From the NCBI GenBank assembly GCA_965113315.1, contig OZ220368.1: a stretch of 64,000 bases of DNA. One strand, 5' to 3'. The notes below the pieces were generated by a model that ran no database searches, was not told the origin of the DNA, and saw nothing but the letters and a program-made list of their open reading frames with translations. The stretch comes from Podarcis vaucheri (lineage: Eukaryota). Shown piece by piece: positions 19,600 to 49,200 of this stretch (the stretch's first letter is position 1; each line of letters starts with the position of its first letter). The translations under genes and the position numbers were made by a program.

Positions 19600-20340
19600 A
19601 GTAAAGAGCACTTAGCACCACCAGGCCCTTCGGCTCCCCCCACCCCACAAAAAACCCCACTTCAGTCGCCTCAAGTTAAAACGCGGCCCGACCCCACGCC
19701 CCCCTCCACATAAATCTCCCAACGCTACCACCCTATTGGCTAGCGCCAAAATCTCTGCCATCCCTATTGGCTTCCTCGCGACCGCGACACTCCCTCTCTC
19801 AGAAACCCCTACCCCTGGCAAGCGGGCAGCCTGGCTGTGCTCCGCTTCGCCCCCCCACCCACCCCACCCCCACAGCTCCGTCCTCCCGGTTTGCCCCCCC
19901 CTCCCTCGACACGCACCGTATAGTAGGAGAGCAGCCCCGCGTTGTAGTCGAGCACGAACCAGCGGTACTGCCAGCCTTTCATCACGTTGGTCCATTTACT
20001 CAGCGGGCCTTCCATGATGGACGCCATCTTGGGAGCCGGTAAGATGCCAAGCGGCCCCGCTGAAGCGAACGCCGGTCGCGCGGGCGGGGCTGAAGGAGAA
20101 GGAGGAGGAGCGGGGCGGGCTGGGGGGGAGGAGGAGAGAGGAGGGACGGAGAGAAAGAAAGAACGCGCGAGCGGGCGGGTGCGCGCGCACCGTCAGTGGG
20201 CTAGGCCTGACTGAGGCGGCGCGAGATTAAGAGGAGAGAGGCGACGGGCGCGGCAAGGGAAAAAAACACCGCACACACACACACACAGAGCCTACGCTGC
20301 TAACGAGAGGGAGGAGATAAAGACTGAGGGGGCGTGACTT
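19600..20340. promoter_or_regulatory. CpG island / OSBPL9 promoter
   Basis: GC- and CpG-dense; GGGCGGGG boxes; surrounds exon 1. Boundaries approximate. Confidence 0.85.
19917..20027 (-). CDS. OSBPL9: Oxysterol-binding protein-related protein 9, coding exon 1 (PH domain start)
   Basis: Translates [37 protein letters not shown], the recognisable ORP9 N-terminus; 111 nt followed by a GTGCGT donor; lies in a CpG island. Confidence 0.97.
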
Positions 20341-23517: not shown

Positions 23518-23788
23518 CAGTGGTGCCTCGCAAGACGAAATTAATCTGTTCCGCGAGTCTCTTCGTCTTGCGAAGCACGGCTATTAGCGGATTAGCGGCT
23601 ATTAACGGCTTAGCGGCTATTAATGGCTTAGCGGCTTTAAGAAAAAGGAAACGAACTCGCAAGACGTTTCGTCTTGCGAAGCAAGCCCATAGGGAAATTC
23701 GTCTTGCGGAATGACTCAAAAAACGGAAAACTCTTTCATCTTGCGCGTTTTTCGTCTTGCAAGGCATTCGTCTTGCGAGGTACCACTG
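23518..23788. mobile_element. Tc1/mariner (Tigger-like) MITE, family A
   Basis: TA|cagtggtgcctcgcaagacgaa...ttcgtcttgcgaggtaccactg|TA; internal 18-bp ttagcggcta repeats. Confidence 0.88.
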
Positions 23789-24035
23789 TACAGTATATTT
23801 ACTTACAAAAACAAGGTGAGCTATTATGATGTACTGAATTCTAAAAAGTTCTGCTTGCTACGTTCTCAAATATATTTCAAGTGGCAGAATGCTAACAATA
23901 CTTTCAAAGAGTAGTCGAGTAGGAAGGCAATACACTTGCTGGGTGTGAATTGATCTGAATTAGATCCAGACACCTGTGTCTTCAGAATCCATTTCCTTTG
24001 AGACATTCCAGGGAGTTTCTGTGCTAGCGCAATTG

Positions 24036-24054
24036 CGTGGTCCCTTCTGATTGG
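24036..24054 (-). promoter_or_regulatory. ER stress response element (ERSE-I, CCAAT-N9-CCACG)
   Basis: Plus strand CGTGG-tcccttctg-ATTGG is the exact reverse complement of the consensus, ~204 bp upstream of the calreticulin-like ATG. Confidence 0.7.
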
Positions 24055-24257: not shown

Positions 24258-24408
24258 ATGCAGCTGATTTACTTAGGGACCTTCTTGATAGGACTGGTAT
24301 TTGGGGAACAAACTGACAATGACAATGATGATAGCCCTTCTACTATGTTAGAGACACCACAGCATACAATAATAAAGGAGTATTTTAGGGAAGAGTTTGA
24401 TGATGAAG
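24258..24408 (+). CDS. CALR4: Calreticulin paralogue (CALR4-like) exon 1: signal peptide, acidic extension, start of N-domain
   Basis: In-frame TAA at 24237, ATG at 24258: MQLIYLGTFLIGLVFG-EQTDNDNDDSPSTMLETPQHTIIKEYFREEFDDE(G)|gtaagt. YFREEFDD aligns with CALR YFKEQFLD; phase 1 matches exon 2. Gene symbol rests on OSBPL9/EPS15 synteny. Confidence 0.88.
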
Positions 24409-26235: not shown

Positions 26236-26461
26236 CAGTGGTACCTCAGGTTAAGAACTTAATTTGTTCTGGAGGTCCGTTCTTAACCTGAAACTGTTCT
26301 TAACCTAAAGCACCACTTTAGCTAATGGGGCCTCCTGCTGCCGCTGCGCTGCCACTGCATGATTTCTGTTCTCATCCTGAAGCAAAGTTCTTAACCCGAG
26401 GTACTATTTCTGGGTGGGGAGTGGCTGGGGAAACCCAGCCAGATGGGCGGGGTACAAATAA

Positions 26462-26508
<47 letters not shown>

Positions 26509-26558
26509 GGGTTAGCGGAGTCTGTAACCTGAAGCATCTGTAACCCGAGGTACCACTG
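26236..26558. mobile_element. Tc1/mariner MITE, family B, with nested L2 tail
   Basis: TA|cagtggtacctcaggtta...taacccgaggtaccactg|TA; insert at ~26416-26507. Confidence 0.88.
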
Positions 26559-26656
26559 TATATCCTAAAATATTAATTCTATTTTACATAACGTGAAATA
26601 ATTGTTGCATGTTATTGTTTTGCTATACCTCATTGCTACTTCTTTTGCTTTTCCAG

Positions 26657-26758
26657 ATGAATGGGAGAAACGATGGGTTCAATCTAAACATAGATCTGAT
26701 TATGGTAAATTTCGTGTTGCATCAGGAAGGTTTTATGGAGATAGAGAAAAAGATAAAG
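26657..26758 (+). CDS. CALR4: CALR4-like exon 2
   Basis: ttttccag|AT GAA TGG...GAT AAA G|gtaaaa; (D)EWEKRWVQSKHRSDYGKFRVASGRFYGDREKDK; 102 nt as in CALR exon 2. Confidence 0.95.
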
Positions 26759-28093
26759 GTAAAATAATGCATTCTCCCATCCCCCAGGTTGTGAAAAATG
26801 AGATTTGTGACTGAATGCATGCCCTCATTCACTTTTATTCCATTATTGACACAATATTGGCTAGTAATAAAACATCTGCATAACTGTCTATAAAACATCT
26901 ACATAACTAGTGGTGGGCTAGAGAGCAGGGTTTCTGCATCTGAGCAAATTTGTGTCAGTGCAAATAGATCCTACAAGTAATGTGATCCCACACATTTAGC
27001 TCTTTAAAAGTCAAACCAGCACTTTAAATTGAGCCCATAAATAGTCAGTCAATGTAACTGGTGTAGAATGAGTGTAATATGATCCAATATGCCCAAATCG
27101 CACGAGATCCTGGTAGCTGCGTTCTATACCAGTTGGATTTTCTGGGCCACATGTAAAGGCAGATCTATAGAGAGAGCATTACAGTGGCCTAGTCCAGATG
27201 TAACCAGTGAGTGTGTTACTTTTTTCCTAAGATAGGGTCAAGTTAAAATGACAAAAGGCACTCCTAGCCACCTGTGCTAGTAAAGATGATAAATTGGATC
27301 CCTGTAGATTTAAGGCAGGAGTGGGGAACTGGATCTGACCAGTAGGAGGCTACCCACCAGTTGTTTTCCCTGACATTGTTAAAAGAAGAAGCTGATCAGT
27401 AGTTAGAGCAACCACTTTTGAAGAAGCTCTTTCAGTGACTGTCAGCTGATTGGAGCTGGGAGCATGCCTTCAAAGAGACTGTTTATTGGTGGTTATAGGG
27501 AGTCCCTTCAAAGTCTCTGCAGGGGGGGGGGAAATGCTCCTAAAAACAGCATTTTCCCCTCTACCTAGAAAGTGACATGGGTTTAAAGCACTTCTTCCAG
27601 TGCTCTGAATTCAGACTGCTTCCTCTGGGGGGGGGGGGAAGCATGCTATTGCAGCGAATGCCATCTGATTCTTGGGACTGACTGCACTTTGAAGCTCCAA
27701 TGATCAGCTGATTGTCAGCTGCACAGGGCTTTCTGTTCAAGCACCAACAATCAGTGGTTATAGGTGCTTGAACTTTTGTTTTCCCTTTTTCCAGACATCT
27801 CCATTTTCTCTTTGTTTATTTCCCGATTAATGTACAGGCTCTGTAAATTGTTTCTTGACTAATATTTATGCAAGTTTCTAACTTCCCAGAGTAATCAACA
27901 GTGGTATTTTGTATATTGGTGGTCTTCTCTTGTTAACAGTATAACTGGCAAGAGGTTATTTAATATTCATATCCTACATAACGCTAGACAGTCTTTGCGG
28001 TTATATTATTATAACCATAGTAAGGACAGGATTTTGTGAAAGTACAATAAGTTGTTTAAACCATAGTTCTAGATCTTTGATTTAATTTTACAG

Positions 28094-28297
28094 GTCTGAA
28101 GGCAACTGAAGACACTAAGTATTATGCAGTGTCAGCAAGGTTTCCACCCTTCAACAATGAAGGTCAGACGTTAGTGCTTCAGTATACAGTAAAATATGAC
28201 CAACATGTTGATTGTGGTGGTGCCTATGTTAAACTTTATTCTGCAGACCTGGTTCAAGAGGTTATGAATGAAGATTCTGAATATTATATTATGTTTG
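28094..28297 (+). CDS. CALR4: CALR4-like exon 3
   Basis: tttacag|...|gtaagt; GLKATEDTKYYAVSARFPPFNNEGQTLVLQYTVKYDQHVDCGGAYVKLYSADLVQEVMNEDSEYYIMF; 204 nt; calreticulin signature motif. Confidence 0.96.
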
Positions 28298-29430
28298 GTA
28301 AGTTCTCAACATGTCTTATTAGTCAGCAGTCAAAGCATATCCATTTTTACAGTGCAATCCAAGAGAGAATTGGGCTTAGCACTATAAGGAAATTTCTGTT
28401 TTCATATTTTTTGAGTCTACATCACTGTATATATCAGTGGCTGCACACAATTCTGTGCCATGACTTATGATTTAGTCAACTATCTGGTGCAGAAAGCTCA
28501 AGAGCGCCTACCATACTCTTCCGGTAGTCAAATGAGGAAACACACAACAGAGCAGTTGGCTTATCATTACACTGGAATCAGCTCTTCTGGTTTGTTTTTC
28601 TCCAGAAAACCAAAATGTGAAGCCAAGTTCTTGACTTCCCAAACATTGTTTATTTGGAGAGAAAAACCCCAAGAATTGGTTTGGGGATAATGTTAAGCTC
28701 AATGGTTTGTTTCCCCACTCAACTAAGGAAGAAGCAGAGTGGGAGCACATGGGATGCATGCACCAGCATGCACCTTGTGCACTGGTTAGCTTACTAAACC
28801 ATAATTAATAGCTCAGTATTATGGGCAAACACAGCCAGTTTTTGCTTCCTTATGTTTTGCAAAATATATTCAATGAGCTGACAAGGTTGCTGGATCAGGG
28901 TGAAGTCTTCCAGGGAGCTTACAAGCAGGGCATGAAGTCAACAGCTCGCCTCTGCTGCCCCATTGTATGGTGCCAACATTTGATATTGTCTCTGAAGATT
29001 TAATTTAGCTATACACAGCATCAGACCATGAACATAAATCTGAACTTTTTAAAAGCTACTGAAAGTAGTAGCTATCAACCCTTTTGACATCTTTTTTTAA
29101 AACTTCCTGGCAATCAATGTGTCTAACACTTTGCTTATTACTTACAATTTTTGAAAACTGCTCTTTCATCTCCCATGTATGTTGTCTTGAGAGTTAGAAG
29201 TAGTGGGATTAAAATGGTTTTAAAATATTAAAATGTTGGTTGCAAGGGACAGGAAGTAAGTAAGTCACCTTCCACGTTTGGAGAAGAAGAAGAAGAAGAG
29301 GAAGAATAAAGTACTATTAACAGCAATTTCTAAATCAGTGGTCAAACTATCATTAAATGACTTATATTTGTGCAGGTGGAATTCTGATCCAAGTCAATTG
29401 GGTTTTTAGAGCACTGTTGTTTTCTCCTAG

Positions 29431-29525
29431 GTCCAGATATATGTGGAGAAGACAAAAAGATAGTGCAGGTTATCTTCAACTATAAAGATGATTATTATTT
29501 GATCAAAAAAAACATCACATGCGAG
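29431..29525 (+). CDS. CALR4: CALR4-like exon 4
   Basis: ctcctag|...|gtatga; GPDICGEDKKIVQVIFNYKDDYYLIKKNITCE; 95 nt. Confidence 0.95.
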
Positions 29526-29672
29526 GTATGATCAGTATTTTTTTGGTATCTGAGAAGCATTGTTGATTTCTAAACTTTGTTGCTAGTTTTCCTCTACTAA
29601 TTGCATTTTTTGTATCTTTCTGTCTTGCTAAAATTCTACTTTCCACACACAAGCAACAGTGAAAAACCCATA

Positions 29673-29951
29673 CAGTGGTGCCTTGCAAGACGAAATTAAT
29701 CCGTTCCGCGAGTCTCTTCGTCTTGCGGTTTTTTCGTCTTGCGAAGCACGGCTATTAGCGGCTTAGCGGCTATTAACAGCTTAGCGGCTTTAAGAAAAAG
29801 GAAACAAACTCGCAAGAACTCGCAAGACGTTTCATCTTGCGAAGCAAGCCCATAGGGAAATTTGTCTTGCGGAACAACTCAAAAAACGGAAAACTCTTTC
29901 GTCTTGTGCGTTTTTCATCTTGCGAGGCATTCGTCTTGCGAGGTACCACTG
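29673..29951. mobile_element. Tc1/mariner MITE, family A
   Basis: Second copy of the 23518 element; TA TSDs and TIRs. Confidence 0.88.
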
Positions 29952-30762
29952 TAGCTGAAGTCTGGGTCAAGTAGTGTTTTTGAAACTAACAGTAACATAT
30001 ATTACAATTATGTTGGCGAGTAAGGGATAGTTTAACTATGGTTTAATGTTAATGAAAAGTGCTAGTGCATGCTGCTCAAAAAGTCCTCAACTGATTCACC
30101 GCAACTCATTCACTGTTGCTCCTGACCACACTGCACCAGGACCAACAAGCTACAAGCATTGGCATGTTATATTATCTAAATCAAGATTGTAGTTTGTTTG
30201 GAGAGAACATGAGCAGCAGGTTTGTTTCAGGGAAATCAACTACAAGTCTGGATTTCACATTCCATTTCTTTTGTTGATACGTATTGTTACTGGGACCATG
30301 CAAGCATGCTGGAGCTTTGTTCTGCTTTGCTCTTCCCTGGACTGAGTGTGGTGCAGCAACTAAGCCAAAGTTTTGCTTAATGTGTCCTCTGAACCCAGGA
30401 TCATGGTTAAGCTATGAACCCAGTATCATGGTTAAGTTGTAGCCAAGAACAAACATTGGCTGATGGGCACCAATCATTATGGTTGCCACTCTTGCATCCT
30501 AGGCACCATTTACTTTTGACACACAACCCAAGAAGCAAGGGAAATAGCTCTCACCAACCAATAATAAGTACCATGGCATGTCCTCAATTTTCTGGCCTCC
30601 AAACTCTTCAAGCAGTGATTGAGTAGATAATCAGTATGCCATTTTTTTCATTTAGTTTATATTCTGTTGCAACATTTAACAAGGAAAACCATCAGTCAGT
30701 TTGGAATATGAGAAAAGAACTCTCTACTTATGTAATAATCTTTATTATTTTTCTTTTTCGAG

Positions 30763-30972
30763 ACCGATGACTTTACCCATCTCTACACTTTGATACTACG
30801 TCCAGATTTAACATATGAAGTGAAAGTTGATAATTATGTTGCTGAGGCTGGCTATCTAGAAGATGACTGGGACTTCCTTCCTCCAAGGAAGATAGTTGAT
30901 CATGAAATGGCAAAACCTGACTACTGGGATGAAAGGGAGCTTATTGAAGATCCCATGGACAAGAAACCAGAT
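30763..30972 (+). CDS. CALR4: CALR4-like exon 5 (end of N-domain, start of P-domain)
   Basis: tttttcgag|ACCGATGAC...|gtaaag; [70 protein letters not shown]; 210 nt. Confidence 0.95.
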
Positions 30973-32037
30973 GTAAAGTTTCAGTATAATGGTTTCTCTT
31001 TCTATATAGATATATATGTACATTAAAGCTGTCTACTTCCCCAGTTGCATTCTGTCCACTGACCATCTCTTGTTGTCTCAGTTGAAGTCAGTGGGTGTTG
31101 CAGCTGTGCTTATAATTCTATGATTTGCTCCAACAACAGTCTGATATCCATCATTTCCTTTCTATTATTTCTATTATTAAATAATTCTTACTTCAGTCAA
31201 TTTCACAATGGTAGCTAATTATTACTTCCATTTAGCAAATGGAGGAGCTGAGGCAATATATGATCATTTACTTGCCTGGGGCTGAGTTGGGTTAAACTCT
31301 AAAATCAATTCTGCACCTCAGTGACATTTGTCTTCGCCTTTACAGACAAATGTCTGCACCCAAGCAAACATTTATACATTCTTTATACACAAAGCAGCAT
31401 ATGTCACTTTTGCCAGGACTTCTTACTTCACCTGACCAGATGAGGGCATAGATGGCAAATACCCAAGTCTCATAGATAGTTCCCCATTCTGGACTCAAAC
31501 CCCAGCACCTCAAGCCCACAGATAAGGATAACATCAAAACAAGCCAATTAACTTATATCAAAGGAAGTGAGTATGAACATACATGAGCTCATTGTTACAT
31601 CAACTACCAATTAATTGTGGGGTTATATTGACTACCAAGATGGTGTTTGCAGTGCTTCTAGAACAGTTCACCTTTGGTTCAACACAAAGTTCAATACAGT
31701 ATATGTCTATCACGGGATTAATAAAAACAAATTTCCATGCCTGGTAGTTGTTGCAGTGAATTTTGTTGAATGCCACAGAACCTAAAAGCTTGTTAAGTGT
31801 GGTAACATATGAAATGCTAGATGATAACAGAAAACAATATAATAACCAATACTTATTTTTATGTATTTATTTACATTTATATTTTGCTACTCTTCCAGCA
31901 CGGAACTCAACTTACTAATTGGTCAATGTGATATTAAATGAGCAAGCATTTTAATAAACTGTCAGGATTATCTTGCTGCTAAAATACATGTTTGAGAAAA
32001 CAATCTTTATTGATTATATGAATGCATACTGTTTTAG

Positions 32038-32151
32038 GATTGGGATCAGCCAGAAAGAATTCCTGACCCAAATGTCACGAAGCCAGATGACTGGGATGAA
32101 GAAATGGATGGAGAGTGGGCACCACCATCGGTTCCAAACCCGGAGTACAGA
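32038..32151 (+). CDS. CALR4: CALR4-like exon 6 (P-domain tip)
   Basis: gttttag|...|gtaagc; [38 protein letters not shown]; 114 nt. Confidence 0.96.
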
Positions 32152-33891
32152 GTAAGCTTGGTATAGGTCTGCATAATAATAAATGCAGAGACTTAGATGG
32201 TAAACAGTAGGGGTCGTATACCCAGAGTAGACCCATTTAAATGGATAGATTTAAGTTAGTCAAGTCCATTGAATTCAGTAAGTCTCTGAGTATGACTTAG
32301 TCCAGGGATTGTCTACCTGGTGCCAAGTTTGTTTCCCTTGAGCATCTTTGGTTTTTGGTTTTGTTTTCAAAAAATAGGCATTTCCTTTACCCATGGAGGA
32401 ACTTTTCTAACGGGTGGGGTTTCTCAGTGATATTCTGTGTTGAGAGAGATGTATTTTTTTTGGGGGGGGAGTCACACATATGGCATTTGTGTGAGGTCCA
32501 GGGATGAGGGAGCAGCAGTGACTGCACTCTCTAATCTTGTCTTATGCCATACCGCCATAGCAGCCATTTTGTAACAGGCACCCACAGCACTTCCTCAGAA
32601 TTCAAAGTGTGCTCACTGGTCCAAAAAGGTACCATGTTTAACCTGAGGCATTTTATCTTACTACCTACTCTCCTGTTCAGTCTTTCTGAATCTACCTTCA
32701 TTTGGCTTTGCCTGTATTTCTCAAGTCCCCCATCCTTAAATGCCATCTCTTGTACCAGTATCTCCCTTCAAGCAGCTATATCCCATCACTTACTAAGCCC
32801 TCAAATAGGTACTGCTTTCTCTGTTTTTCTTGCTGCTCTCTTTTTGACCCACTGGTTTGGATTCCTCTTTCTCTTTCTCTCTCTTTCTTTACCACTTCCA
32901 AGTAGTTGCTGTCTCCAGTCTGCTTTTCATCCTCTCTACTGACTGTTGAAATCATTGTCTATGCTTTTCTTCCATTACCACAATTGTCACATAGTATTTT
33001 TAAGTCCTTGCAGAACTTTTACCCACCTTATATTATCAGTTTCAACCCTTTAGTTTTGTAGCTTTTAGTTTTGCAGCTCAAATCCGTGGTTGTGTCTCCA
33101 CTCTCACTGCTTTTTCCATCACTTCTTGCTTTCTCCATTCTATTCACACCTCATCAGCTCCCCCCGCCCTCCTGTTTCCATTCCTGTCCCCCTCTCCCAC
33201 ATGTATTCAGGGGTGTGTGGAGGGGGCGGTCTGCCCCGGGTGCCACTCTAGGGGGGGGGTGACAAGATGGCCCCTGCCTCCCCCCAACTGTAGAGCGGCC
33301 AAGGGCGTGTGCAGTCCATATGGGCTGCCGTTCTCATGCACTGTCCATATGGGCTGCTGCGCGTGCGCACGTACAGCTGCATCCCGTGCAGTCGTCACAC
33401 ACGTGCAGTCCATACAGGATGCTGCACATGCACACTCCGTACAGGCTGCCCCACCCCAGGTACCGGAGAGGGTTCCTCCGCCACTGCTTGTATTATCTTC
33501 AAATTAAGACAAAATCTGTAGCTCTCCAGTTGTTGCTAGACTCCAACTCCCATAAGCCCCAGCCAACATAGTATGGAAGGGATGTTGAGAAGTGGGAAAC
33601 CAACAACATATGGGCGGCTACTTCCCCATCCTAGTGAAATCATTGTTAAAGTACAAGTCAATGGTATATAATTAGTTTTACTTATTGTAAAATAAAGCTT
33701 CTGTTGGCATTATCACTATGAAAGGCCCACACTCAAAACTGTAAATAATGTGTCAGTACATATTTAGCAAATGATGATAATACATTCCATATTGTTATTT
33801 TTCTTTCACTAGACTTAGCAAATATTTATTTTGACTAAATTGGGTTTGGGGGGAAATAAACTTCAAGCTTGTCTCAATTGTTCTTTTTTAG

Positions 33892-34035
33892 GGAATTTGG
33901 AAGCCCCGTATAATCAAAAATCCCAATTATAATGGCATATGGGTTCAGCCATTAGTTGATAATCCAGAATACACACCTGATCCTAATCTTTACAAGTATT
34001 TCAACATCAGTGTCATTGGTTTAGAAATTTTACAG
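33892..34035 (+). CDS. CALR4: CALR4-like exon 7
   Basis: ttttttag|...|gtatgt; GIWKPRIIKNPNYNGIWVQPLVDNPEYTPDPNLYKYFNISVIGLEILQ; 144 nt. Confidence 0.96.
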
Positions 34036-34211
34036 GTATGTATTTTATAGAGTTTTCAGAAATAATTCCTTAACTGGAAAGATAATTCTTATTACAGAGT
34101 CTAGTTGTATTCTGTACCATTATGAGGGAAAAGCTGTCCAATTTTCTAATTTGAATCATTCACAGGAGAAAAATAGCATTAGCAACCCATTCATTTTGAA
34201 AATATGATATA

Positions 34212-34441
34212 CAGTGGTACCTCAGTTTACAAACTTAATCTGTTCCAGAAGTCCGTTCTTAAACCGAAACCATTCTTAAACCGAGGTGCGCTTTCGCTAA
34301 TGAGGCCTCCTGACGCCGGTGCACTTCCACCATTCGGATTCCGTTCTTAGACCGAGGTAAAGTTCATAAACCGGGACACTACTTCCGGTTTTAAACCGAA
34401 TCGTTCTTAAACAGGACTGTTCTTAAACCGAGGTACCACTG
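34212..34441. mobile_element. Tc1/mariner MITE, family B variant
   Basis: cagtggtacctcagttta...taaaccgaggtaccactg TIRs. Confidence 0.82.
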
Positions 34442-34805
34442 TGTTGTGTTTCCCATTTGCAGCATTTGCAATTAATTCAAACGACTGCATGGTCATCTAT
34501 AGAATCTGCTTCAGTGGTGATCTTCACACCATGTGCTCTAGAGTAGGATTATTGTGGAGTAGATAATTTGAGAAGAATGGCCTCTGATATTAGAAGATTA
34601 TGATATAGCTGGATTGATGGGATGACAAACCTGTGTACTGGCTTTGAGTATGAACGCAATGTTAAATCTGAATTTATTAGAATAGGAGCACGCTAAATTG
34701 GTAGGCGCAGTGGAACTTACTTTTGACTTACATGTATATTGTTGAAATGTGGGGCTTTTAATGCAAAGCCTGTGACATCTGCAATCTGAGAATCATTTTT
34801 CATTA

Positions 34806-35039
34806 CAGTGATACCTCTGGTTACGAACTTAATTCGTTCTGGAGGTCCATTCTTAACCTGAAACTGTTCTTAACCTGAGGTACCACTTCAGCTAATGGGG
34901 CCTCCCGCTGCCACCGCCGCACGATTTCTATTCTCATCCTGAGGTAAAGTTCTTAACCCGAGGTACTACTTCTGGGTTAGCGGAGTCTGTAACCTGAAGC
35001 GTATGTAACCTGAAGCGTATGTAACCCGAGGTACCACTG
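34806..35039. mobile_element. Tc1/mariner MITE, family B
   Basis: Uninterrupted copy; TIRs and TA TSDs. Confidence 0.88.
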
Positions 35040-35477
35040 TAAAAGGCTCCAGATACCGTAACTAGATAAGCCTTCCTGATACAGGGAAACAGAACCATTT
35101 TGAATCTGGCTTCTAGTCTTCAGAAAACGAGACAGTTTCCTAAAGAAGAAATGGGGGCAATCACCTAATTACGTACCCTTTGCATGTCATGGTTGAATTC
35201 CAACCCGTTTTACCTAGTCCATGGCAAATAGAAATTGAATTATTTTTTTAATCAAAATTCTACAGAATGAAAACATAAACACAGTAGAATTAATATAAAC
35301 TTAATATAGATATGAAGCAACAGCTTTGGGACTGTATATATTTGCTTTCATCACAAAATGCTGAATTTCTGGTTGAAGGAATTGGTTAATATATTATGCA
35401 TGTGTGAGCTAGGAAGTTTTCCTCAAAATAACAATGAAATATTATATAGGCACGCTGCCATTTTCTATTGCTTGTTC

Positions 35478-35551
35478 ATATTTTATATTATTTTAGTATA
35501 CAGCAGGAAATAATATTTTATATTATTATTTTAGTATACAGAAGGAAATAA
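35478..35551. repeat. Tandem duplication of a ~35-38 bp AT-rich unit
   Basis: atattttatattattttagtatacagcaggaaata occurs twice, imperfectly. Confidence 0.8.
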
Positions 35552-36165
35552 ATTATTTTAAATAAATAGATAGCCACTTAATACAGGTTTGAGAAGAAAA
35601 TAATGCAGCTTTGTACAATCTCACTTCTAGAAACCATGTATCACCCATTCTTGCAGCATTGTATTGTAGCTATAGGGCAGGATTCACATAACTAGCCCCG
35701 TCAGCAGAAGCCCTGCACAAGGACTTCAACTTGCGCAATGGGGTTCCGTCCTCCTCTCCCTGTCAGCCCCTTAAAATTGGATGGAAGGAAGTGAGGAAAA
35801 CCCCCAGAACAGCATGTGGTGGGAGAAGAGAGGAGCTTGCTCTGTCTCACATTGAATTCCACCCATAGGTTTTGGGATTTTTTTGTATCACCTTTAATCA
35901 TTGTATCCAATGTTGTGCCCAATTTATATTGTGAGCTTTTTCTGGTGAAGCACCATTCTTGTTGGTATTAAATTCAGGCAGCGGTCATAACTCCATTACC
36001 TAATAATAAATGTCTCTGAATTCAACAGGTCTTACTTCTGAGTACACATAGTTGGACTTCCATTATCACAAGTATATATGGCTCACATATATGGCTCACA
36101 AATCTAGCTATATTGTGTTTACTTCAGTAACTCATTTTTCCCTTCTACCTTTTTAATTCCAACAG

Positions 36166-36258
36166 GGAAAGTCTGGCACAATCTTTGACAATTTTCTTAT
36201 CACAAATGATGAACAATATGCTGAAGATGCTGGGAATGAAATGTGGGGTCCCACATTT
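36166..36258 (+). CDS. CALR4: CALR4-like exon 8
   Basis: ccaacag|...|gtaagt; GKSGTIFDNFLITNDEQYAEDAGNEMWGPTF; 93 nt. Confidence 0.96.
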
Positions 36259-36916
36259 GTAAGTAACGTAATCACCATACAAGAGTGGCTGCATTGAGAT
36301 GGTGCAGAAGGGCTTTTGCTAGTATACCTGCACAGCTCCAGGTGTCCAGGCATTTGTATAATTACCATAAGAGCCTTGAACCCTGCAGCAGTCTCGCCAC
36401 TACATTCTGCACTACCTGGTTCAAGACCAGGCTCAAGGACTTCCCCACATAGAGTATACTGCAGTTATCAAGTCTTGAGGTTACTTATGCATGGACTCCT
36501 GTTATCATGATCCAGTTATTGTCATAGCTGGTGTACCAGACAAAGTTGGTAAAAGGCATTCCTAGCAGAGGTCACTTAGGCCTCTAACCACAGATTTGTA
36601 TCCAGGAATACCAGTACCTGGTTCTGATTGCTTTATGAAGCACCTGAGCCCTACTGCATTGGCAGAAGAATCCTCCTGTGGATTGATCCAGGCTGTTGGT
36701 TGCTGTTATCATTAGCTCATAAGAGAATTCCTCTAGCAATACAGTAAGGCTCAGATGCTTCATAAGGTAAAACAGGACCAGGATTCAATGGGGTATCTTT
36801 GCTGGTCTGAGGTACACTAAGGAAAATGTGGGTGAACAGGGGGTAAGTTGTAAAGCAAGCATAATTTGTGAGGGTACACAATATTCCATTACTATTCAAG
36901 AAATATGCCAAGTTCC

Positions 36917-36917
<1 letters not shown>

Positions 36918-36965
<48 letters not shown>

Positions 36966-37257
36966 TTATTATTTATACCCTGCCCATCTGGCTGGGTTTC
37001 CCCAGCCACTCTGGGCGGCTTCCAAAAGAATATTAAAATACTATTATACATCAAACATTAAAAGCTTCCCTAAACAGGGCTGCCTTCAGATGTCTTCTAA
37101 AAGTCTGGTAGTTGTTGTTCTCTTTGACATCTGGTGGGAGGGCGTTCCACAGGGAGGGCGCCACTACTGAGAAGGCCCTCTGCCTGGTTCCCTGTAACTT
37201 GGCTTCTCGCAGTGAGGGAACCGCCAGAAGGCCCTCGGTGCTGGACCTCAGTGTCTG
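36918..37257 (-). mobile_element. L2-like LINE 3' fragment with (TTA)n tail
   Basis: Peptide LRSSTEGLLAVP...RAFSVVAPSLWNALP...FRRHLKAALF; tail merges into the (AAT)15 microsatellite at 36918-36963. Confidence 0.85.
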
Positions 37258-38171
37258 ATCCTTACACATATCTGCTTGATACTATATCTTGTTAAGTTCA
37301 GTCAGTCTTGTTCGAGCAAGCTGTAATCCTGTGCACCCTTACCTAGAAGTAAATCTTGTTGAACATAGTAGGATTTACTTCTGTGTAAACATGAATAGAA
37401 TTATTAGACTGCACATCCTGCAGAGTTTAGTTAACCATAACTAGCACTAACAGGATTCATAAAATCAATACTATACCTACTGTACATAATATTTTTATAC
37501 ATAGAAGTAGCCAGTAAAGAACTGTAGAAATGCATGCTTCCATTATTACAGTGTAAGAAACAAAACTGATGTAGTTCCAAACATATTAAGATCTGCTTGA
37601 AAAACACAAGCTTTAGGTGTTAAGGGAAGCTAGTTAAATTCTTTTGAAATTATGAAGAACTCACTGAAAACTAAGGAATAAATGTACAAATGTAGCTGTA
37701 CAGATTGCACAAAAATAACAAAAAGCCAAGCAAGGTATATACAACACTAAAGAAAGTGACAAAAATATCTGAGGGTGGGAAAGTTTTCAGTGTTGCATCA
37801 CGTCTGATTATTAGGAATTTTCATAGTGACTTTAGATTGGGGGGAAATACCTTCAGAGTTAAGGCTTGAACCTACATTTTCAGTGTGAGGCCCTCTTTCT
37901 CACTGACTCTTTGCCAAGAAGGAAAGGGAGGCAGATTTCAAAAACAAATCTCTTACGGAAACTTATAGAAGTAAATGTCTGCATTTCATATTCTGGCTGT
38001 GACATTTACATTTTTTAAAAATTGACTCGAGGTAATGTATTCCTATAACCTTCATTTGGTCTTAACACATGGAATACTATTGAATAAGTTATTTGCAGCT
38101 TATTTATATTAATATTTAACATGGTTTTTCATCTTGCCAACATGCTTTACAATTCTTGTTTGAATAAACAG

Positions 38172-38306
38172 GAGAGAGAATGGAAGAGAAGACAGGGACA
38201 AGATGTTGTGTATAAAAAAATTAATGAAAATGAGGAACCGAAAGGAAAAGAAGGCAAGAAAGAAAAAAGGAAGAAAAAAGATCGCAATGTTAAAGATGAG
38301 CTCTAA
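38172..38306 (+). CDS. CALR4: CALR4-like exon 9 (C-tail with KDEL, stop)
   Basis: aaacag|GAGAGAGAATGG...; EREWKRRQGQDVVYKKINENEEPKGKEGKKEKRKKKDRNVKDEL*; phase 0 with exon 8. Total CDS 1248 nt = 415 aa. Confidence 0.92.
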   Translation, partial: EREWKRRQGQDVVYKKINENEEPKGKEGKKEKRKKKDRNVKDEL

Positions 38307-40370
38307 TCAACCAAATTTTATTGCATAGTTACTGTAACTCATGGTGGAATTTTTTTCAACTTCTAAATATTGTATTTATTTTCTAAATATCTGTTACTGA
38401 AACTGAAATGCAGTGGCAGTAAAAAGTTCTGACAACAATTGTTATGCTAATAAGTGTGGGTAATGGTGGTACAAGCAAAATGGTTGGGTTTCTTATTTAA
38501 TTCCGGAGGGGACATCGACACATACAGAGACACATAGATGGATGCAACTCATGTACTGTGGGGATGTAGAAAATAGCAAAGAACCACTGGCTCAGTCAGA
38601 GGTCATATTCCTTGATACCTAAACTAGGGATAGATTGAAATGTCTATAACAGTTTACTACATCATTTGCAGGTGACAATTTGATTGCTGAAATGGTTTTA
38701 CAGGGAGGGAATTCCCACTGTGGTTGTGGGTGGCTGCTCAGCTTTCTAAAATAACTTTTTAAAACTCACCAACTTTTAGAAATTAAGCAAAATGGAAGCA
38801 AAGAAGGCCCGTTCTCATGGTAAGTTGACCCTCTATAACTACCCACCCCAAGTTAGCTAATTTTATTGTAGTGCCCCTTCTCTTTTTTTGGTTACAGGTT
38901 TCCCCTGACATCGCTTTTTTCTCCCTCCCCCCAAAGTCAGGCATATTGTAAAACAAATGGAGACTAGCTTTGCTGTAAACTAGGAATGTTGCATGGGCTG
39001 CTTTTTCCCACTTTCTCATTCATACATCTCCCCTGCCCTTCAATGGGTTCTGTAATTATACTGTAGCATTGCTTCTGCACAAAGGAGACGGTGATATCCA
39101 ACAGTTGAAACAAAATTCTGGCTGAAACTCTGCCCCTTTAAATCTCTACCTAACCTCTATTTTATACATGTTTTGGGTAGACAAGCTTAAAACATACAGG
39201 TCTGCAGATATCAGGTGTAAATGGCACCTCACATGACCATCATAGTGATTCAACCCTATACCATTATACTAATTCAACTACAACTTACAGCTGAGAATTC
39301 ACATGTGCACCTCTTACACACACTGAGGTTCCTGAACTATTGTGAATTGTTCCATTCTTTATAAGTTCCCACCACAAATGCACATGGAAGCATTATGTAG
39401 TCATATGGCACAACACTAAGAGGAGAGATAGTTGCCTGGATTTCCACCCAATATATTTCAAGTATGTAACTTTCCACTATCAATGTATAGCATAAGTAGG
39501 CAGTGACCGCTGGACTGTGTAGGGTTCCTAGGTCACAGATGCATGCCCAAGTTGTTCCTGTCTTCTGCCCATCCTCCTCTCTTAAAAAGATACTATGGTA
39601 CAGTTGTACTTAACAAAACAGAAAGGACTTATGTTGGTTCAGAAGGGCTTCCTTCTCTCACAGTTGCTTCACTGCTCTGAGAAAAGTTACGTTGCCTCCA
39701 CCTGTTCTGGTTCTCCCCGTCCTTACCCTTTGCAAAGAAAGAGTGGACACTTAAGCATTGAAGTTTTTTAATACTTAAATCAAGGTAAGGCACTTACGTG
39801 CTAAGTGCAGATTCATACCACAATAACTGCATTGCATGGGGATTGAAATGCATAGGATTGCAGCTTGAATTAGTTAAAGGTGCCACATAGGCCTTAACAA
39901 AGGACCCCATCAATTTCCAGACCTATGGGAAAATATTCTACCCTCTCCCCACTTGCTCACTTCTTTATCTTTTCCCAAGAATGTGGAATAAGGTATAGAG
40001 ATAGTAAGTGCACTAGGGCCTGAGACACCAGGGTTAAAATCACCACTTGGCCATTAAAAACTCACTGTGTGACTTTGGGCCAGTCACTGTCAGGACTAAC
40101 CTACCTCACAGGGTGGTTGTGAGGATAACATGGGGAAATGAATGAATGCATGCCACCTTGAGCTCCTTGGAGGAAAGGTGGAATGGATATAAATGCAATA
40201 CTGATAAATAAGGAATAATCATAATAAAAAGTCTACATCCAACCTGCCTGTCCCTGATTTTGAATTGGAGGGTTGGGGTCAGGTCTTGAATCATGAAAAT
40301 AAACCCAATTCAGAAATCAAATAAAAAATAATCTGGGATACAACCAGGATATTCAGGCCTATAAACATTG

Positions 40371-43120
40371 AATCATAGAATCATAGAATCATAGAGTTGG
40401 AAGAGACCACAAGGGCCATTGAGTCCAACCCCCTGCCAAGCAGGAAACACCATCAGAGCACTCCTGACATATGGTTGTCAAGCCTCTGCTTAAAGACCTC
40501 TAAAGAAGGAGACTCCACCACACTCCTTGGCAGCAAATTCCACTGTCGAACAGCTCTTACTGTCAGGAAGTTCTTCCTAATGTTTAGGTGGAATCTTCTT
40601 TCTTGTAGTTTGGATCCATTGCTCCGTGTCCGCTTCTCTGGAGCAGCAGAAAACAACCTTTCTTCCTCCTCTATGTGACATCCTTTTATATATTTGAACA
40701 TGGCTATCATATCACCCCTTAACCTCCTCTTCTGCAGGCTAAACATGCCCAGCTCCCTTAGCCGTTCCTCATAAGGCATCGTTTCCAGGCCTTTGACCAT
40801 TTTGGTTGCCCTCCTCTGGACACGTTCCAGTTTGTCAGTGTCCCTCTTGAATTGTGGTGCCCAGAACTGGACACAGTACTCCAGGTGTGGTCTGACCAGA
40901 GCAGAATACAGTGGCACTATTACTTCCCTTGATCTAGATGCTATACTCCTATTGATGCAGCCCAGAATTGCATTGGCTTTTTTAGCTGCCGCGTCACACT
41001 GTTGGCTCATGTCAAGTTTGTGGTCAACCAAGACTCCTAGATCCTTTTCACATGTACTGCTCTCAAGCCAGGTGTCACCCATCTTGTATTTGTGCCTCTC
41101 ATTTTTTTTGCCCAAGTGCAATACTTTACATTTCTCCCTGTTAAAATTCATCTTGTTTGTTTTTGCCCAGTTCTCTAATCTGTCAAGGTCGTTTTGAAGT
41201 GTGATCCTGTCCTCTGGGGTGTTAGCCACCCCTCCCAGTTTGGTGTCATCTGCAAATTTGATCAGGATGCCCTTGAGTCCATCATCCAAGTCGTTGATAA
41301 AGATGTTGAATAAGACCGGGCCCAAGACAGAACCCTGTGGCACCCCACTAGTCACTCTTCTCCAGGATGAAGAGGAACCATTGATGAGCACCCTTTGGGT
41401 TCGGTCAGTCAGCCAGTTACAAATCCACTGAGTGGTAGCATAGTCAAGACCGCATTTTACCAGCTTCTTTACAAGAATATCATGGGGCACCTTGTCAAAT
41501 GCCTTGCTGAAATCAAGGTAGGCTACATCCACTGCGTTCCCTTCATCTACCAGGCTTGTAATTCTGTCAAAAAACGAGATCAGGTTAGTCTGACATGACT
41601 TATTTTTCAGAAATCCATGCTGACTATTGGTGATCACAGCATTCCTTTCTAGGTGCTCACAGACTGTTTGCTTAATGATCTGCTCCAGAATCTTCCCTGG
41701 TATTGATGTCAGACTGACTGGGCGGTAATTATTTGGGTCCTCTCTTTTCCCCTTTTTGAAAATAGGGACAACATTTGCCCTCCTCCAGTCTGCCGGGACT
41801 TCGCCTGTTCTCCAGGAATTCTCAAAGATGACTGCCAGTGGTTCTGAGATCACATCTGCCAGTTCTTTTAATACTCTTGGATGCAGTTCATCTGGCCCTG
41901 GAGACTTGAATACATCTAAACTAGCCAAATATTCTTGTACTATCTCCTTAGTTATTCTGGGCTGTGTTTCCTTTGCTGAATCATTTGCTCCAAATTCTTC
42001 AGGTCGGGCATTGTTTTCTTTATCGGAGAAGACTGAGGCAAAGAAGGCATTGAGTAGTTCAGCCCTTTCTGTGTCCCCTGTTTGCATTTCACCATCTTCT
42101 CCTCTGAGTGACCCCACAGTTTCTTTGTTCTTCCTTTTGCTACGAACATACCCATAAAAGCCTTTTTTGTTGCTTTTAACCTCTCTAGCAAGCCTGAGTT
42201 CATTCTGTGCTTTAGCTTTTCTGACTTTGTGTCTACACGTGCTGGCTATTTGTTTGAATTCCTCTTTGGTGGTTTCCCCCCTTTTCCATTTTTTGTACAC
42301 ATCCTTTTTTAATCTTAATTCAGTTAAAAGTTCTTTAGATAGCCACCCTGGCTTCTTTAGGCACCTTCCATGTTTCCGTCTCATTGGTATTGCCTGTCGT
42401 TGTGCTTTTACTATCTCCCTCTTAACAAACTCCCAGCCATCATGAACTCCCTTTCCTTTAAGTATTGCTGTCCATGGGATCTCACCCAGCACTTCCCTAA
42501 GTTTTATGAAGTCGGCTTTCTTAAAGTCAAGAAATTGAGTCCTAGTATGCTTGGCTGCTCCTTTCCGCTGTATAGTAAACTTCAGAAGAGCATGATCACT
42601 CGCGCCTAATGATCCTTCCACATCTACCCCACTAACCAGGTCATCAACATTGGTTAGGACCAGATCTAAAATGGCTGTTCCTCTTGTTGCTTCTCCCACT
42701 TTCTGGACAATGAAGTTGTCTGCAAGGCCAGTGAGGAATCTGTTTGACCTTATGCTCTTGGCTGAGTTTGACGTCCAACAAATATCCGGGTAATTGAAGT
42801 CCCCCATTACTACTATCTCCCTTCCTTTTGCATGCTTGGCCATCTGTTCCAGGAAGGCATCATCTATGTCCTCCGTTTGGCTTGGGGATCTATAGTAAAC
42901 TCCCACAATGAGGTCTCTGTTATTCTTCTCTCCCTTAATTTTGACCCAAATGCTCTCACTTTGGCTTTGAGGTTCTAAATCTTGGATCTCTTCACAGGTA
43001 TACACATCCCTGACATATAACGCCACTCCTCCTCCTTTCTTGTCTGGTCTGTTTCTTTGAAATAGATTGTATCCCCCCAAAATAGATTGTATCCCCCCAA
43101 AATAGATTGTATCCCCCCAT
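40371..43120 (-). mobile_element. CR1 LINE, 5'-truncated, with uninterrupted ORF2 (partial APE endonuclease + reverse transcriptase)
   Basis: 875-codon ORF 40453-43080 with [26 protein letters not shown] and FADD motifs; 3' end is a (ATTCTATG)n CR1 tail. Confidence 0.96.
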
Positions 43121-46100
43121 TGGACCTTACATGTTAGGTCCTTGGCAAATCCAGTGTGTGGCTATTTGCTGGGACAGGCTTGCCTGGGTGAGGTGTGCAG
43201 GCAGTGGCAATCCATGCTCCCATACGAATATATAGGCTCTGCACACTGAGTTATCATCTGAACTATCCCAGGCACCCCTCTACTTTTTGTAATAGCATTT
43301 TAGGTTTGCCAAAGTGTTTATAGTCTCTTTAGCCTTATAAAGTAGATCACAGAGTCCGCTTAATCAAATGCATCCTTCTTGGTAATCCACACAAGCTTAT
43401 GCAATAATACATTTGCTAGGCCTTAAAATGCAATTGGACAGTTGTTTCGTTGTTTCTGTAAGCCATGGCTAACTGATCAACCCCCTTGATTGAAAGTGTA
43501 CCACAGCAATGTACCCAATGCCATACACTGAGCTGTGGCAGAGAGGATAAAATCTTAATTAGTCTCAATATCTTATGGTGGGCTATTTTTTATGGTGGCT
43601 TACTGAGAAGGTAAATGTGCAGACAATATTTAATCAAAACGTGATGCTGTCCCAAGAGGTTTACCTTGAACAAGGGAATATATGATTAAGAATTCTGAGC
43701 CTCAGAAATAAATGGCGTGTGCATGTACAGAGTGCACCTGCTTCCCCAATGAAGAATCTGTATTTAGTTCTTCCATAACAATAACTTCAGCCTGAAATAG
43801 AAATGCTTCATTGCCAGCCAGCCACTCACTGCTACTCTTACCAAAATGCCAAGTAAAAAGTAGATCTTAAAAAAAAACATACACCTCAGGAATCTAGGCC
43901 TTCAGGTAGTTGGAAGAGAGAGATTTCTGGAGACCCTTTCTCGTATGTAATGTGCATTCCAGTTTGTTTTAAATACACTGGTTTGGTCATCATCCTTTGT
44001 ACAGAGCACATCTTAAAACCACCAATCTGTTCACAGTCTCCCCACACCAAACTGGCAATAGCATTCAGTTTACTTACACAATAAATAATCCAAGGTCAAA
44101 TCAAGCTGTGAACAACCTCACACCCCTTCTCAAACTATTTTTATATGGTGTATACGTGTGTATGATACGTTTGTATGGTGTTCCTGAACATGCATTTGTG
44201 TCAGCAAGTTGCCAGGCTCACAGCATCCATTGCTAGCCAAAAATAAATGCATGTCCCAGCATGTCTTTGAAGACACACAAAGAAAGAAAGAAAGAAAAAG
44301 CCTTCCCTGAGAAGAAGGATTGAATGTTAAACTACTCTGGAAATTGTAAGAGGAATAGGGTGTCTCTTGATAACTCTCAGCACCTTAACTACCCTTCACA
44401 GGATTATTTGGAGGAAGCCACCACTATTTAAAATTGAATGATACAGCTCTAGATGGGGCCTCATCCGGTGGTCAGAAAAGTTGAGGCCTGAGCTTTACTA
44501 CTGTCTACTACATTCCCGTTCCGTCTCAGGTGACAAAATGGGAGGACATGCCACCCCTGGGCATAGCCATCACATTCAACACTATACTGTTATGCAGGTA
44601 GTACACAGAATTGCAAGGGACACTGTTCGGGAAGACACTCCTAAAAGGGCAGAATGGACAGCAAGGACATTACATGCACAGCCACAACAATTCTTTCTTC
44701 TAGTAAGTAAAATGGAAAGGTAATAGTTTCTTGTGTTAAGAGAGCTATCATGTTTCCACACACAGCTGAACACACAGATGGTCTAGGCTCATGTTTAGCT
44801 CCAGAGCTGGGGCTCATTCAGAGATACACAAGCTGGTTTCCTTCAATGTTGGACTCCAGTACCAAGCTATCTAGGGAAAACAGCAAAAGAATTAGCAGAC
44901 TTGTCAAAAGAACAATACATGACATTTTGCAGCACACATCTGCCTGTCTCGGGCAGCATGACCATTATCTGTAGTTTGAATTCTATCCTATGTTTCCTGA
45001 GAAGTAAGCTCATTAACATACACCCAAGGAGACCTTTGTTCTTGCCGTGAGTCAAATAATTAGCATGGCCATCACAGGCATTCTCATTCAATTGGACATG
45101 CAACCTATCAGATAGGACACAAATGAATCACTGAAGACACTTAAATTTTCAGCATTAAAATTCTGGTACATTCATATTATTTGTCTGAACATCATTGTGC
45201 ATTAGTGAAGTAATACTGTATTTTTAAACTTTTTTATTTATAAAACAATAGAACCAAACATTACAGAAGGAAGTTGTACATAAATGTAATTGAACAATCT
45301 AAGCTTATAAAGATCTTGCCCAGAGGGTGCTAGCCCTTTAATACCCAAAAGCACACTTAAAAAATAAAATTCATTCCAAGAAACTCCAGGGCAGGTAATT
45401 AACACAAAATGGCTTCTTTGACTGGAAAGCAAACACATCTCAGCGAGACCTTGTAGTATCCTGATGGCTTAGGGGGTCAAGGTTCTGTGAGGCTTTTCAC
45501 AATTGGATATAATGATATTTAAATCAAACAAGACGTCAGAAATTAATCCTGCTAAAAAGCGCTACCTGGTCCTGACCCTACACCATACAATGGTCATGGT
45601 GATTCAACCACCAGTTACAATTTTTAGTATATTCTAGCTATAGTTTAAAGCTAACACGGTTTAAGATGAGGTTTACATTTTATTTTGGTGCTTACAGCCA
45701 TGAGAGATCAATGGCAGCAACCTCCTGAGCATGTGAGCTTATTTTAGCGAAGTGTGCAACAGGGCTCCATGACCTTTTGGCTTTATTTTTTCTGTTTGAA
45801 ACATGGCAATGTGCTACTGGATCAACATGTGGGAGACTGGCTGCATCTATTTCCACATGGATCGTGTTGCCAGCACTGTCCCCAATTGGTAGGCTGTGGC
45901 AGAGTTTCTTGGGATGTTGTGGGCACATCTGCCATTCCTCACAATGTTCTGTTTTCATTTGTGTATTTTCTCTCCTTGCCCAGGCTGCGGACAAAAATAA
46001 AACCATAGGAAGATCCAGTCAGAGATCCCCTGTGTTGCATGTACCTTGGCCCTCCAGAGGACAGCTGGTTTGCAACCAATACTTTCTTGTACATTGCTGC

Positions 46101-47929: not shown

Positions 47930-49200
47930 TGCCATCGTAGGGCGTGCTTACTCGGGAGCAAACAGCACCGAACACGGCGAGATCTACTTTATAGAGTATT
48001 ATATACACACACAACCGAGGTTAGCCACCACAGCGCGTACGCCCAACTAGAAAGCTCTGCCAAGTTCTCCCTCTGCACAACTCCAGTCCGCATTTTCGTA
48101 GCCGCCGAGCTTAACTGAGGTCGAGCCGAACCCTTCCTGGCCGGCTGGCTGGGAATCCGGGCCAGGCGAGCGTAATAGTATTCCTCCGAGCGGAGGCCGA
48201 ATTGAGCGGTTGCTCGGTGGTGGCTCCGCTCCAGAGGGGGCCGTGCCGGGAAGGGATCCGGGCGCCGGGCTTTGCTACGCAGCAGGGCGGGGCCTGGCTG
48301 GGGGTGGCTCGGGAAGTTGCCGAAGTTGGGCAGAGAGTGGAGGGACGGAGCCAGCGAGCGCCTGCCTGCCTGCCTGCCTGCTCGGGCCGGGCCTTCCTGG
48401 GTGCTGCTCTTCCCCCTCCCGCCCTCTCTTCCCTGCCCGGCCGGTGCATGATGGAAGCAGCATGGCCGCTCATCTTTCCTTAACGCAGGTAGGGACGGCT
48501 CGCTTTTCGTTCGGTGGGGAGGGAGTGGGCTGGTTAGCTAGGGCGGGGGAGGCAGCCGGGGGAAGCCTCGCCTCCACGCTCCCGCCGTCTCCCCTTGGAA
48601 GAGTTTCCTTTGTGACCTGGCCGCCTCCCGCTTCCATTCCTCCTCGTAGCCCTTTCCCTGACCGCGTCTCCCCTCGGGGCGCTTGTCCGCCTGCGCCCCC
48701 CTTCGCAACACCCGCCCTCCATCTCTGGGACGCCCCTTGGAACCCAGCCGGGCTTACTTCTGAGGAGGCGCCTTGTTTATGAACAGCCTCCCCTGTTTCC
48801 GTGCTCCCCAAGCTCTCTAGTCTTCCTTCCTAGTCTCCTCCTCCTCCTCCCAAGTTCTGCTGTTTGCCCCAAAGCTGCCGCCCTTCACTTCGCCGGTGGT
48901 TCCCACGGGGGACTCCGCGCCTTGTTTCGCGGAAGCGGACGACGTGGGCTGCGCCTTACGCAAAGCTCGTAACGCAGAGAACGTGTCTAGCGGGCGCCCG
49001 GAATTCCGCGGCTCTTGTCAGTCTCCAGCCGGTGTGGCGAAGAGTGACGGGCTTAGGAGCTGGGCTGACAAGGGGTCAAAGCTCCACTCACCCGGGAAAC
49101 TTTGTGTTTATTCGCTGCCTCTTCGCCTAATCTTCCTCACGGGGTTGTTGTGAGGAGAACATGGGGAGGGAAAGGGCCACGGACACCGCCTTGAACTCCC
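47930..49200. promoter_or_regulatory. CpG island / EPS15 promoter
   Basis: CpG-dense; GC box gggcggggc at ~48285; surrounds exon 1. Boundaries approximate. Confidence 0.85.
48462..48488 (+). CDS. EPS15: Epidermal growth factor receptor substrate 15, coding exon 1
   Basis: agcATGGCCGCTCATCTTTCCTTAACGCAG|gtaggg = MAAHLSLTQ (human MAAAAQLSLTQ); strong Kozak context; lies in a CpG island. Confidence 0.92.

Follow-up and report, generated by a model that had tools for sequence, protein, structure and literature searches.

A short, mildly basic calreticulin tail shared by squamates in a gene assigned to CALR4

The calreticulin gene CALR consists of nine exons, and Calr4 is a pseudogene in human. 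The tails of the 10 CALR proteins compared here span 64–69 residues and carry 34–43 D/E and 9–14 K/R (net −25 to −29)—the long acidic calcium store of the canonical protein. This acidity sits in the last ~40 residues: in three CALRs, the first 27 tail residues have a net charge of −1 to −2 and the remainder one of −24 to −26. Plant CRT3 features a less acidic C-domain, a retrieval signal, and a client-specific role, and its basic cluster is reportedly essential, as the title of one study has it. In the mouse, the vomeronasal organ expresses Calr4, which does not hold back V2R vomeronasal receptors; the gene has decayed to a pseudogene where V2Rs are absent (PMC4194052, PMC11643622). V2R pheromone receptors are hard to express in cell lines because they are retained by calreticulin, and the reason for their release by Calr4 is described as unresolved (PMC4194052). 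CALR3, or calsperin, is a paralogue reported to be devoid of broad lectin activity (PMC10078156), and human CALR3 keeps the lectin Trp, which is common to all seven family lectins tabulated, calnexin and calsperin included (PMC9744295). By eye, the 45-residue tail of the human Del52 mutant counts 18 K/R, 2 acids, 7 Met, and 2 Cys (PMC8085772).

The locus described here lies in a window of 64,000 nucleotides of Podarcis vaucheri DNA (contig OZ220368.1, assembly GCA_965113315.1). Its nine CALR4 exons, at 24258–38306, form a single 1248-nt frame with one stop, which is terminal, and encode an intact calreticulin of 415 residues (Table 1). From exon 2 onward, the protein is identical to the RefSeq protein of Podarcis muralis/raffonei; its N terminus from exon 1 matches database proteins of Lacerta, Zootoca, and P. 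lilfordi, and 2 of the 415 positions differ from Lacerta agilis. A match to human CALR covers residues 46–418 (E = 3e-151), and the Lacerta protein matches the calreticulin domain of Pfam (PF00262) with E = 3e-73 and 247 bits against a cut-off of 25. The AlphaFold model of the near-identical Lacerta protein, used for the helix/coil split of the tail and for the fold match, has a mean pLDDT of 62, with values below 50 for residues 9–100; its top Foldseek match is human calreticulin (E = 1e-32), the lectin fold with a P-domain arm. The lacertid protein carries three N-glycosylation sequons at residues 184, 270, and 334.

Table 1. Features of the CALR4 locus and its surroundings in the window
Feature	Position	Strand	Basis or remark
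First coding exon of a PH-domain gene, oxysterol-binding-protein type	19917..20027	−	head to head with CALR4
Alternative first coding segment MMDAILGA, phase-1 GT donor	20014..20038	+	in frame with exon 2
ERSE-type motif CCAAT-N9-CCACG	24036..24054	−	~200 bases upstream of start codon
Exon 1: signal peptide, 21-aa acidic leader, first β-strand	24258..24408	+	frame; RNA depth 0 in 4 runs
Exon 2	26657..26758	+	frame, run joints
Exon 3; Cys105, Tyr109, Lys111, Tyr128, Met131 kept	28094..28297	+	joints, alignment
Exon 4; Asp135, Cys137 kept; Lys143 to Ile, His145 to Gln	29431..29525	+	alignment
Exon 5	30763..30972	+	frame, run joints
Exon 6; P-domain tip; Glu255, Asp258, Trp261 kept	32038..32151	+	joints, alignment
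Exon 7; Asp317 to Glu, Trp319 to Leu (human numbering)	33892..34035	+	alignment to human CALR
Exon 8; first codons finish the altered lectin strand (Val321 to Gly)	36166..36258	+	joints, alignment
Exon 9, coding part: 44-aa tail, KDEL and stop	38172..38306	+	translation, splice joint, model
3′ UTR, running on from exon 9 as far as 39600 or beyond	38307..39600	+	contigs 38172–39598 in runs X1 and X3

The hydrophobic N terminus (mean hydropathy of 2.2 over 11 residues) has the character of a signal peptide, complementing the C-terminal KDEL. The leader that follows contains six D/E and no K/R in 21 residues; the acidity noted for it in the first-pass annotation is strongest in lacertids, but geckos have a Ser/Gly-rich leader instead. 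The ERSE reported there is present as well, and the motif, which we take to be the ERSE consensus, has its sole match in the window at this site, with 0.095 matches expected.

Two quick trees of 64 and 37 rows, built from the core with leader and tail excluded and computed without bootstrap or AU test, group the squamate proteins with caecilian, axolotl, frog, and mammalian sequences, mouse Calr4 being present in the second tree. In both, this CALR4 group is split from CALR and CALR3 by a branch with an SH-aLRT of 98, and the squamate stem is long (0.47–0.49). Pairwise core identity amounts to 63–64% to CALR and is thus higher than the 60% to mouse Calr4, so that orthology rests on the quick trees together with the gene arrangement; fast evolution on both branches would explain the higher identity to CALR. 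The head-to-head neighbor, presumably OSBPL9, has a first coding exon that matches the PH domain of ORP11 (E = 1.2e-7) and, short of the cut-off, the Pfam PH domain (E = 1.8e-4). In the mouse, Calr4 and Osbpl9 are found within a single interval of 3.3 Mb. A rat model belonging to the mouse Calr4 cluster opens with the antisense-exon peptide also seen in squamates, which points to the same gene arrangement. Judged by these trees and this arrangement, the gene is the squamate orthologue of mouse Calr4. The two share the tree clade, the head-to-head upstream exon, the signal peptide, the N-, P-, and C-domains, and KDEL; the mouse protein differs in a tail of 83 residues with a net charge of −20 and in Asp317 and Trp319, where squamates have 41–44 residues, Glu317, Leu319, and Gly321. 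With CALR, the lizard gene shares the PF00262 domain, the fold, and the nine exons; unlike CALR, squamate CALR4 lacks the distal acidic block, has an extra N-terminal leader, and is altered at lectin positions.

Squamate CALR4 is, by its sequences, a real squamate-wide variant of a known gene. The view that this locus is the best candidate in the window for an undescribed system is accordingly not supported: the gene is assigned to the Calr4 of mouse, and two stork CALR3 proteins have mildly basic tails as well (55 residues, net +1 and +3, KEEL). Turtles, crocodiles, birds, and tuatara contributed no recognized member of the clade to the best 120 matches in either of two lists, which does not count as evidence of absence. 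A literature search, which left subscription papers mostly uncovered, found nothing on squamate CALR4, although the vertebrate survey of the mouse Calr4 paper may mention reptiles; the supplement of one rattlesnake chemoreceptor paper holds no calreticulin entry. Marsupial CALR4 proteins measure 546–558 residues, and the two inspected have a long insert after the signal peptide. Further along the window, a CpG island contains a short first coding exon at 48462–48489 (+), which we take to resemble EPS15, a gene that neighbors CALR4 orthologues along with OSBPL9.

Translation of exon 9 yields K12, R5, D3, and E8 (net +6), in agreement with the composition first reported, namely 17 K/R versus 11 D/E with a lysine cluster adjoining NVKDEL. 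An AG acceptor precedes the exon, which continues exon 8 in phase 0. The exon 8–9 junction 36258>38172 (GT..AG), for which confirmation had been sought, is present in 4 of 4 runs examined, each from a different study: X1, X3, and X12, which are guessed to be RNA, each contribute one contig, and X23, a stranded RNA run whose exon reads indicate the plus strand, contributes one raw read. The first-pass annotation had envisaged transcripts with a different, acidic terminal exon; no such exon ending in KDEL was found in the 169 candidate frames that lie downstream of exon 8 as far as base 48000. Neither of the remaining frames of exon 9 is acidic, and a hidden frameshift as the origin of the tail is rejected. 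A motif scan locates AATAAA-type words at 40053–40320.

What sets this tail apart from CALR is how few acids it has. The fraction of acidic residues differs from that of CALR (11/44 versus 38/66, Fisher p = 0.0009), whereas the excess of bases is marginal (p = 0.048). The sign of the charge by itself shows no departure from neutrality (17 basic and 11 acidic residues, binomial p = 0.17), and shuffles of the 53%-A exon, 148 of 5000 of which stayed open, have a mean net charge of +9. In the model, the first ~19 tail residues form a helix (375–394), followed by 25 disordered residues with pLDDT below 50 (396–419).

Across squamates, the tail was compared in 35 rows, one isoform per species. All 35 tails have 41–44 residues, 14–17 K/R, 9–14 D/E, and a net charge of +1 to +6 (median +5), and all end in KDEL; the nonacidic character thus extends to every squamate in the set, and a calreticulin tail devoid of the acidic block has persisted throughout the squamate radiation. 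The longest acidic run measures 2–3 residues in squamates, 2 in the window tail, and 7–12 in CALR, and the segment matching residues 340–349 of mature CALR contains 1–2 acids instead of 4–5. In a listing of squamate database proteins that covers two clusters in part, the tail is present in 72 of 78 entries and closes with KDEL in 71; the partial king cobra model breaks off before KDEL. The six models that end otherwise—five Podarcis muralis UniRef entries and one of Gekko kuhli—contain neither an acidic run nor KDEL. From ordinary CALR to squamates, D/E fall from ~39 to 11 and K/R rise merely from ~12 to 15. Since the acidity of CALR is distal, the squamate change is mainly the loss of the distal acidic block, and the description of the tail as charge-reversed stands for the lost acids and the net positive charge but overstates a small gain of bases.

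Outside squamates, 14 mammalian CALR4 tails have net charges of −14 to −27 and four caecilian/axolotl tails of the CALR4 clade −17 to −33, the lacertid tail being the most basic of all those compared; BLASTP of the 44-residue tail against mouse Calr4 gave no meaningful alignment. In frogs, CALR4 tails are, as far as sequences tell, independently remodeled—very long in spadefoot-type members of the clade and near neutral in three pipids (net −2 to −7). The spadefoot-type tails are of mixed charge and span 165–307 residues. The word K[KR]x[KR] is found in the distal tail of all 35 squamates. The NLS-like word is not distinctive, as 8 of 10 CALR tails and 7 of 14 tails of mammalian CALR4 contain it too. 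Removal of KDEL by cleavage at a dibasic site had been proposed too and finds little to act on, as distal KR/RR occurs in 4 of 35 species only, all of them lacertids, and the window tail is devoid of a furin-type RxxR. Furin/dibasic processing is rejected on the grounds of this confinement.

The altered lectin site, likewise part of the first-pass annotation, is borne out and consistent throughout. Residue 319, in the numbering of a 417-residue CALR that was compared with the human protein, is Leu in all 35 squamates and Trp in each of the 37 rows from CALR, mammalian CALR4, and the amphibian CALR4 clade. All 35 squamates also have Glu for Asp317, Ile or Val for Lys143, and Gln for His145, and the 34 aligning at Val321 have Gly there. 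Of 14 tabulated lectin positions, three are changed nonconservatively (Lys143, His145, Trp319) and three conservatively (Arg73, Phe74, Asp317). Cys105, Tyr109, Lys111, Tyr128, Met131, Asp135, and Cys137 are retained wherever present, as are Asp258 and Trp261 of the P-domain; the motifs CGGxYxK and YxxMFGPDxCG are kept, and GxxxW has Leu for Trp in every squamate. As judged by alignment, the loss of Trp319 is a sharper squamate-specific change than the tail.

Spliced transcripts of exons 2–9 are found in all 4 runs, which were chosen without regard to vomeronasal tissue. The depth of the exon 1 bin is 0 in each, a value that is weak for X1, whose contigs miss exons 2–3, and for the thinly covered X23. 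A contig of X3 has another 991 bases ahead of exon 2, none of them from exon 1, and its four bases beside exon 2 match neither exon 1 nor the 20014–20038 segment. The same four bases precede a strong GTAAGT donor at 23207, the end of a candidate untranslated exon; joined to exon 2, this donor leaves no open frame. The 20014–20038 segment is antisense to the start of the neighboring gene and would give a predicted 373-aa form without signal peptide; its joint lies outside the region compared with the runs. Database models of 10 squamate species start in this antisense segment, joined to exon 2 or 3, and starts of this type are seen in models of geckos, anoles, lacertids, a boa, and rat. Phase-1 AG sites lie inside exon 1 at 24277 and 24292, and a Crotalus horridus model joins the antisense start inside exon 1, which would restore the hydrophobic leader. 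The observed/expected ratio of CpG is 0.84 at the island of the neighbor versus 0.17 at exon 1. The transcripts without exon 1 may represent spill-over from this CpG-island promoter, with the ER form made in a tissue outside those sampled.

The explanation we prefer, which we regard as evenly balanced, is that exon 9 ends a Calr4 orthologue acting as a low-calcium, weakly gripping ER chaperone for special clients, most plausibly V2Rs. Exon 1 would provide entry into the ER and KDEL retrieval. With 11 acids instead of ~39, acidic runs of at most 3, and fewer acids at CALR 340–349, little calcium would be stored—the poor buffering already supposed in the first-pass annotation is a reasonable expectation from the loss of acids. 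The loss of Trp319 and the changes of Lys143 and His145 would weaken the grip on monoglucosylated glycans; the remaining disulfide, glucose-side residues, and P-domain tip may allow the protein to aid folding and to release clients instead of retaining them. What remains of the tail would comprise the conserved helix of the C-domain and a short spacer of mixed charge leading to KDEL, its slight positive charge probably being mostly what was left once the acids were removed. V2Rs are the leading candidate clients because of the orthology to mouse Calr4 and the large V2R repertoires of squamates (PMC3590772). Mouse Calr4, however, releases V2Rs with both its acidic tail and Trp319 kept, so that this task can be performed without the squamate changes. 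Nor does a less acidic tail have to mean a loss of calcium function: calreticulin-null fibroblasts regained ER calcium holding with Arabidopsis CRT3 (PMC2893204), and low-affinity binding persisted in the human Del52 mutant (PMC12262281). For these reasons, neither the calcium step nor the release step is certain. CRT3 also differs in that it retains its client, and its likeness to squamate CALR4 would be of independent origin. Against the preferred explanation stand the zero depth of exon 1, in runs whose tissue is not stated and weakly so for X1 and X23, and the conservation of the tail over 32 squamate sequences (helix 78%, distal tail 71%, core 87%), which might exceed the need of a bare spacer. 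Lizards and snakes rely on V2Rs, and their CALR4 lost both of the features to which the hold of calreticulin on clients and calcium is attributed—a ready variant with which glycan binding, calcium storage, and ER retention could be told apart, and a candidate helper for the expression of reptile V2Rs.

The basic cluster could instead be an active surface that binds acidic patches of clients in place of the glycan grip and may weaken KDEL retrieval, which we consider unlikely; that a client is escorted out of the ER or the chaperone partly secreted is similarly doubtful. The positive net charge and the K[KR]x[KR] word in all 35 squamates fit such a surface, as does the alteration of tail and lectin site on the same long stem, and the C-terminal part of AtCRT3 is needed for the retention of BRI1-9 (PMC2893204). 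Gecko tails, however, reach net charges of just +1 to +3, the best 10-residue window across squamates ranges from +2 to +7, and mouse Calr4 has a similar window of +5 within its acidic tail; the distal part is moreover the least conserved and predicted to be disordered. One result favors weakened retrieval, and with it the first-pass annotation: KDEL placed right after the human mutant tail failed to stop secretion. The authors ascribe this leak to the multimer-forming mutant sequence (PMC13040144), which is absent from the lizard tail. A fuller form, in which the squamate ancestor dropped sugar grip and acidic store together and the basic tail took over client binding, loosened KDEL, and came to escort V2Rs from the ER, is rather improbable; if true, this escort would be a natural, benign counterpart of the cancer mutants that repurpose the calreticulin tail. 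Also unlikely is a specialized chaperone unrelated to V2Rs, with a different client or tissue such as testis, as for calsperin. The similarly short, mildly basic stork CALR3 tails and the precedent of calsperin as a nongeneral, lectin-poor paralogue with a dedicated client (PMC10078156) speak for it, and so do the transcripts in runs not picked for vomeronasal tissue; these transcripts, seen without exon 1, would however not make the ER form, and the tree places the gene with Calr4 and not in the separate CALR3 clade.

The same transcripts allow for a main product without signal peptide, driven by the CpG-island promoter of the neighbor and cytosolic, with the lysine cluster as a possible NLS. 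The antisense starts of the 10 species, the zero depth of exon 1, and the X3 contig agree with this, and the antisense segment is in frame, its second ATG having A at −3 and G at +4. Yet it is the coding exon of the other strand that determines its peptide, the X3 upstream bases fit neither candidate start, and the donor at 23207 yields no open frame; rodent and sloth Calr4 models share upstream starts and have acidic tails. The product would also lack the first β-strand of the globular domain (strand 42–48 in the model), and signal peptide, cysteines, and KDEL are conserved in squamates, all of which makes this reading very unlikely. Extremely unlikely is a natural equivalent of the human myeloproliferative CALR mutants, dimerizing and activating a cytokine receptor after secretion or KDEL cleavage. 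Like Del52/Ins5, the squamate protein lost the acidic tail and has a net positive end, and the mutant tail needs its basic residues to activate the thrombopoietin receptor (PMC10076285). The mutant tails, however, are in a shifted frame, rich in Arg and Met, and equipped with Cys but not KDEL, whereas the lizard tail mixes Lys and Glu in the ancestral frame, keeps 11 acids and KDEL, and has neither Met nor Cys; it is the unused +1 frame of exon 9 that encodes a Met-rich peptide of +15. The analogy drawn in the first-pass annotation also falls short in charge (+0.14 per residue versus ~+0.36, by-eye count). The mutant relies on the glycan pocket including Trp319 (PMC10076285), absent here, and a distal dibasic site is limited to 4 of 35 species.

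Two short interspersed, highly transcribed repeats sit inside the introns and upstream of CALR4—the first at 26234–26560, 34210–34440, and 34804–35040, the second at 23480–23790 and 29670–29950. Downstream, an open frame of 902 codons at 40456–43161 (−) resembles a LINE endonuclease/reverse transcriptase.
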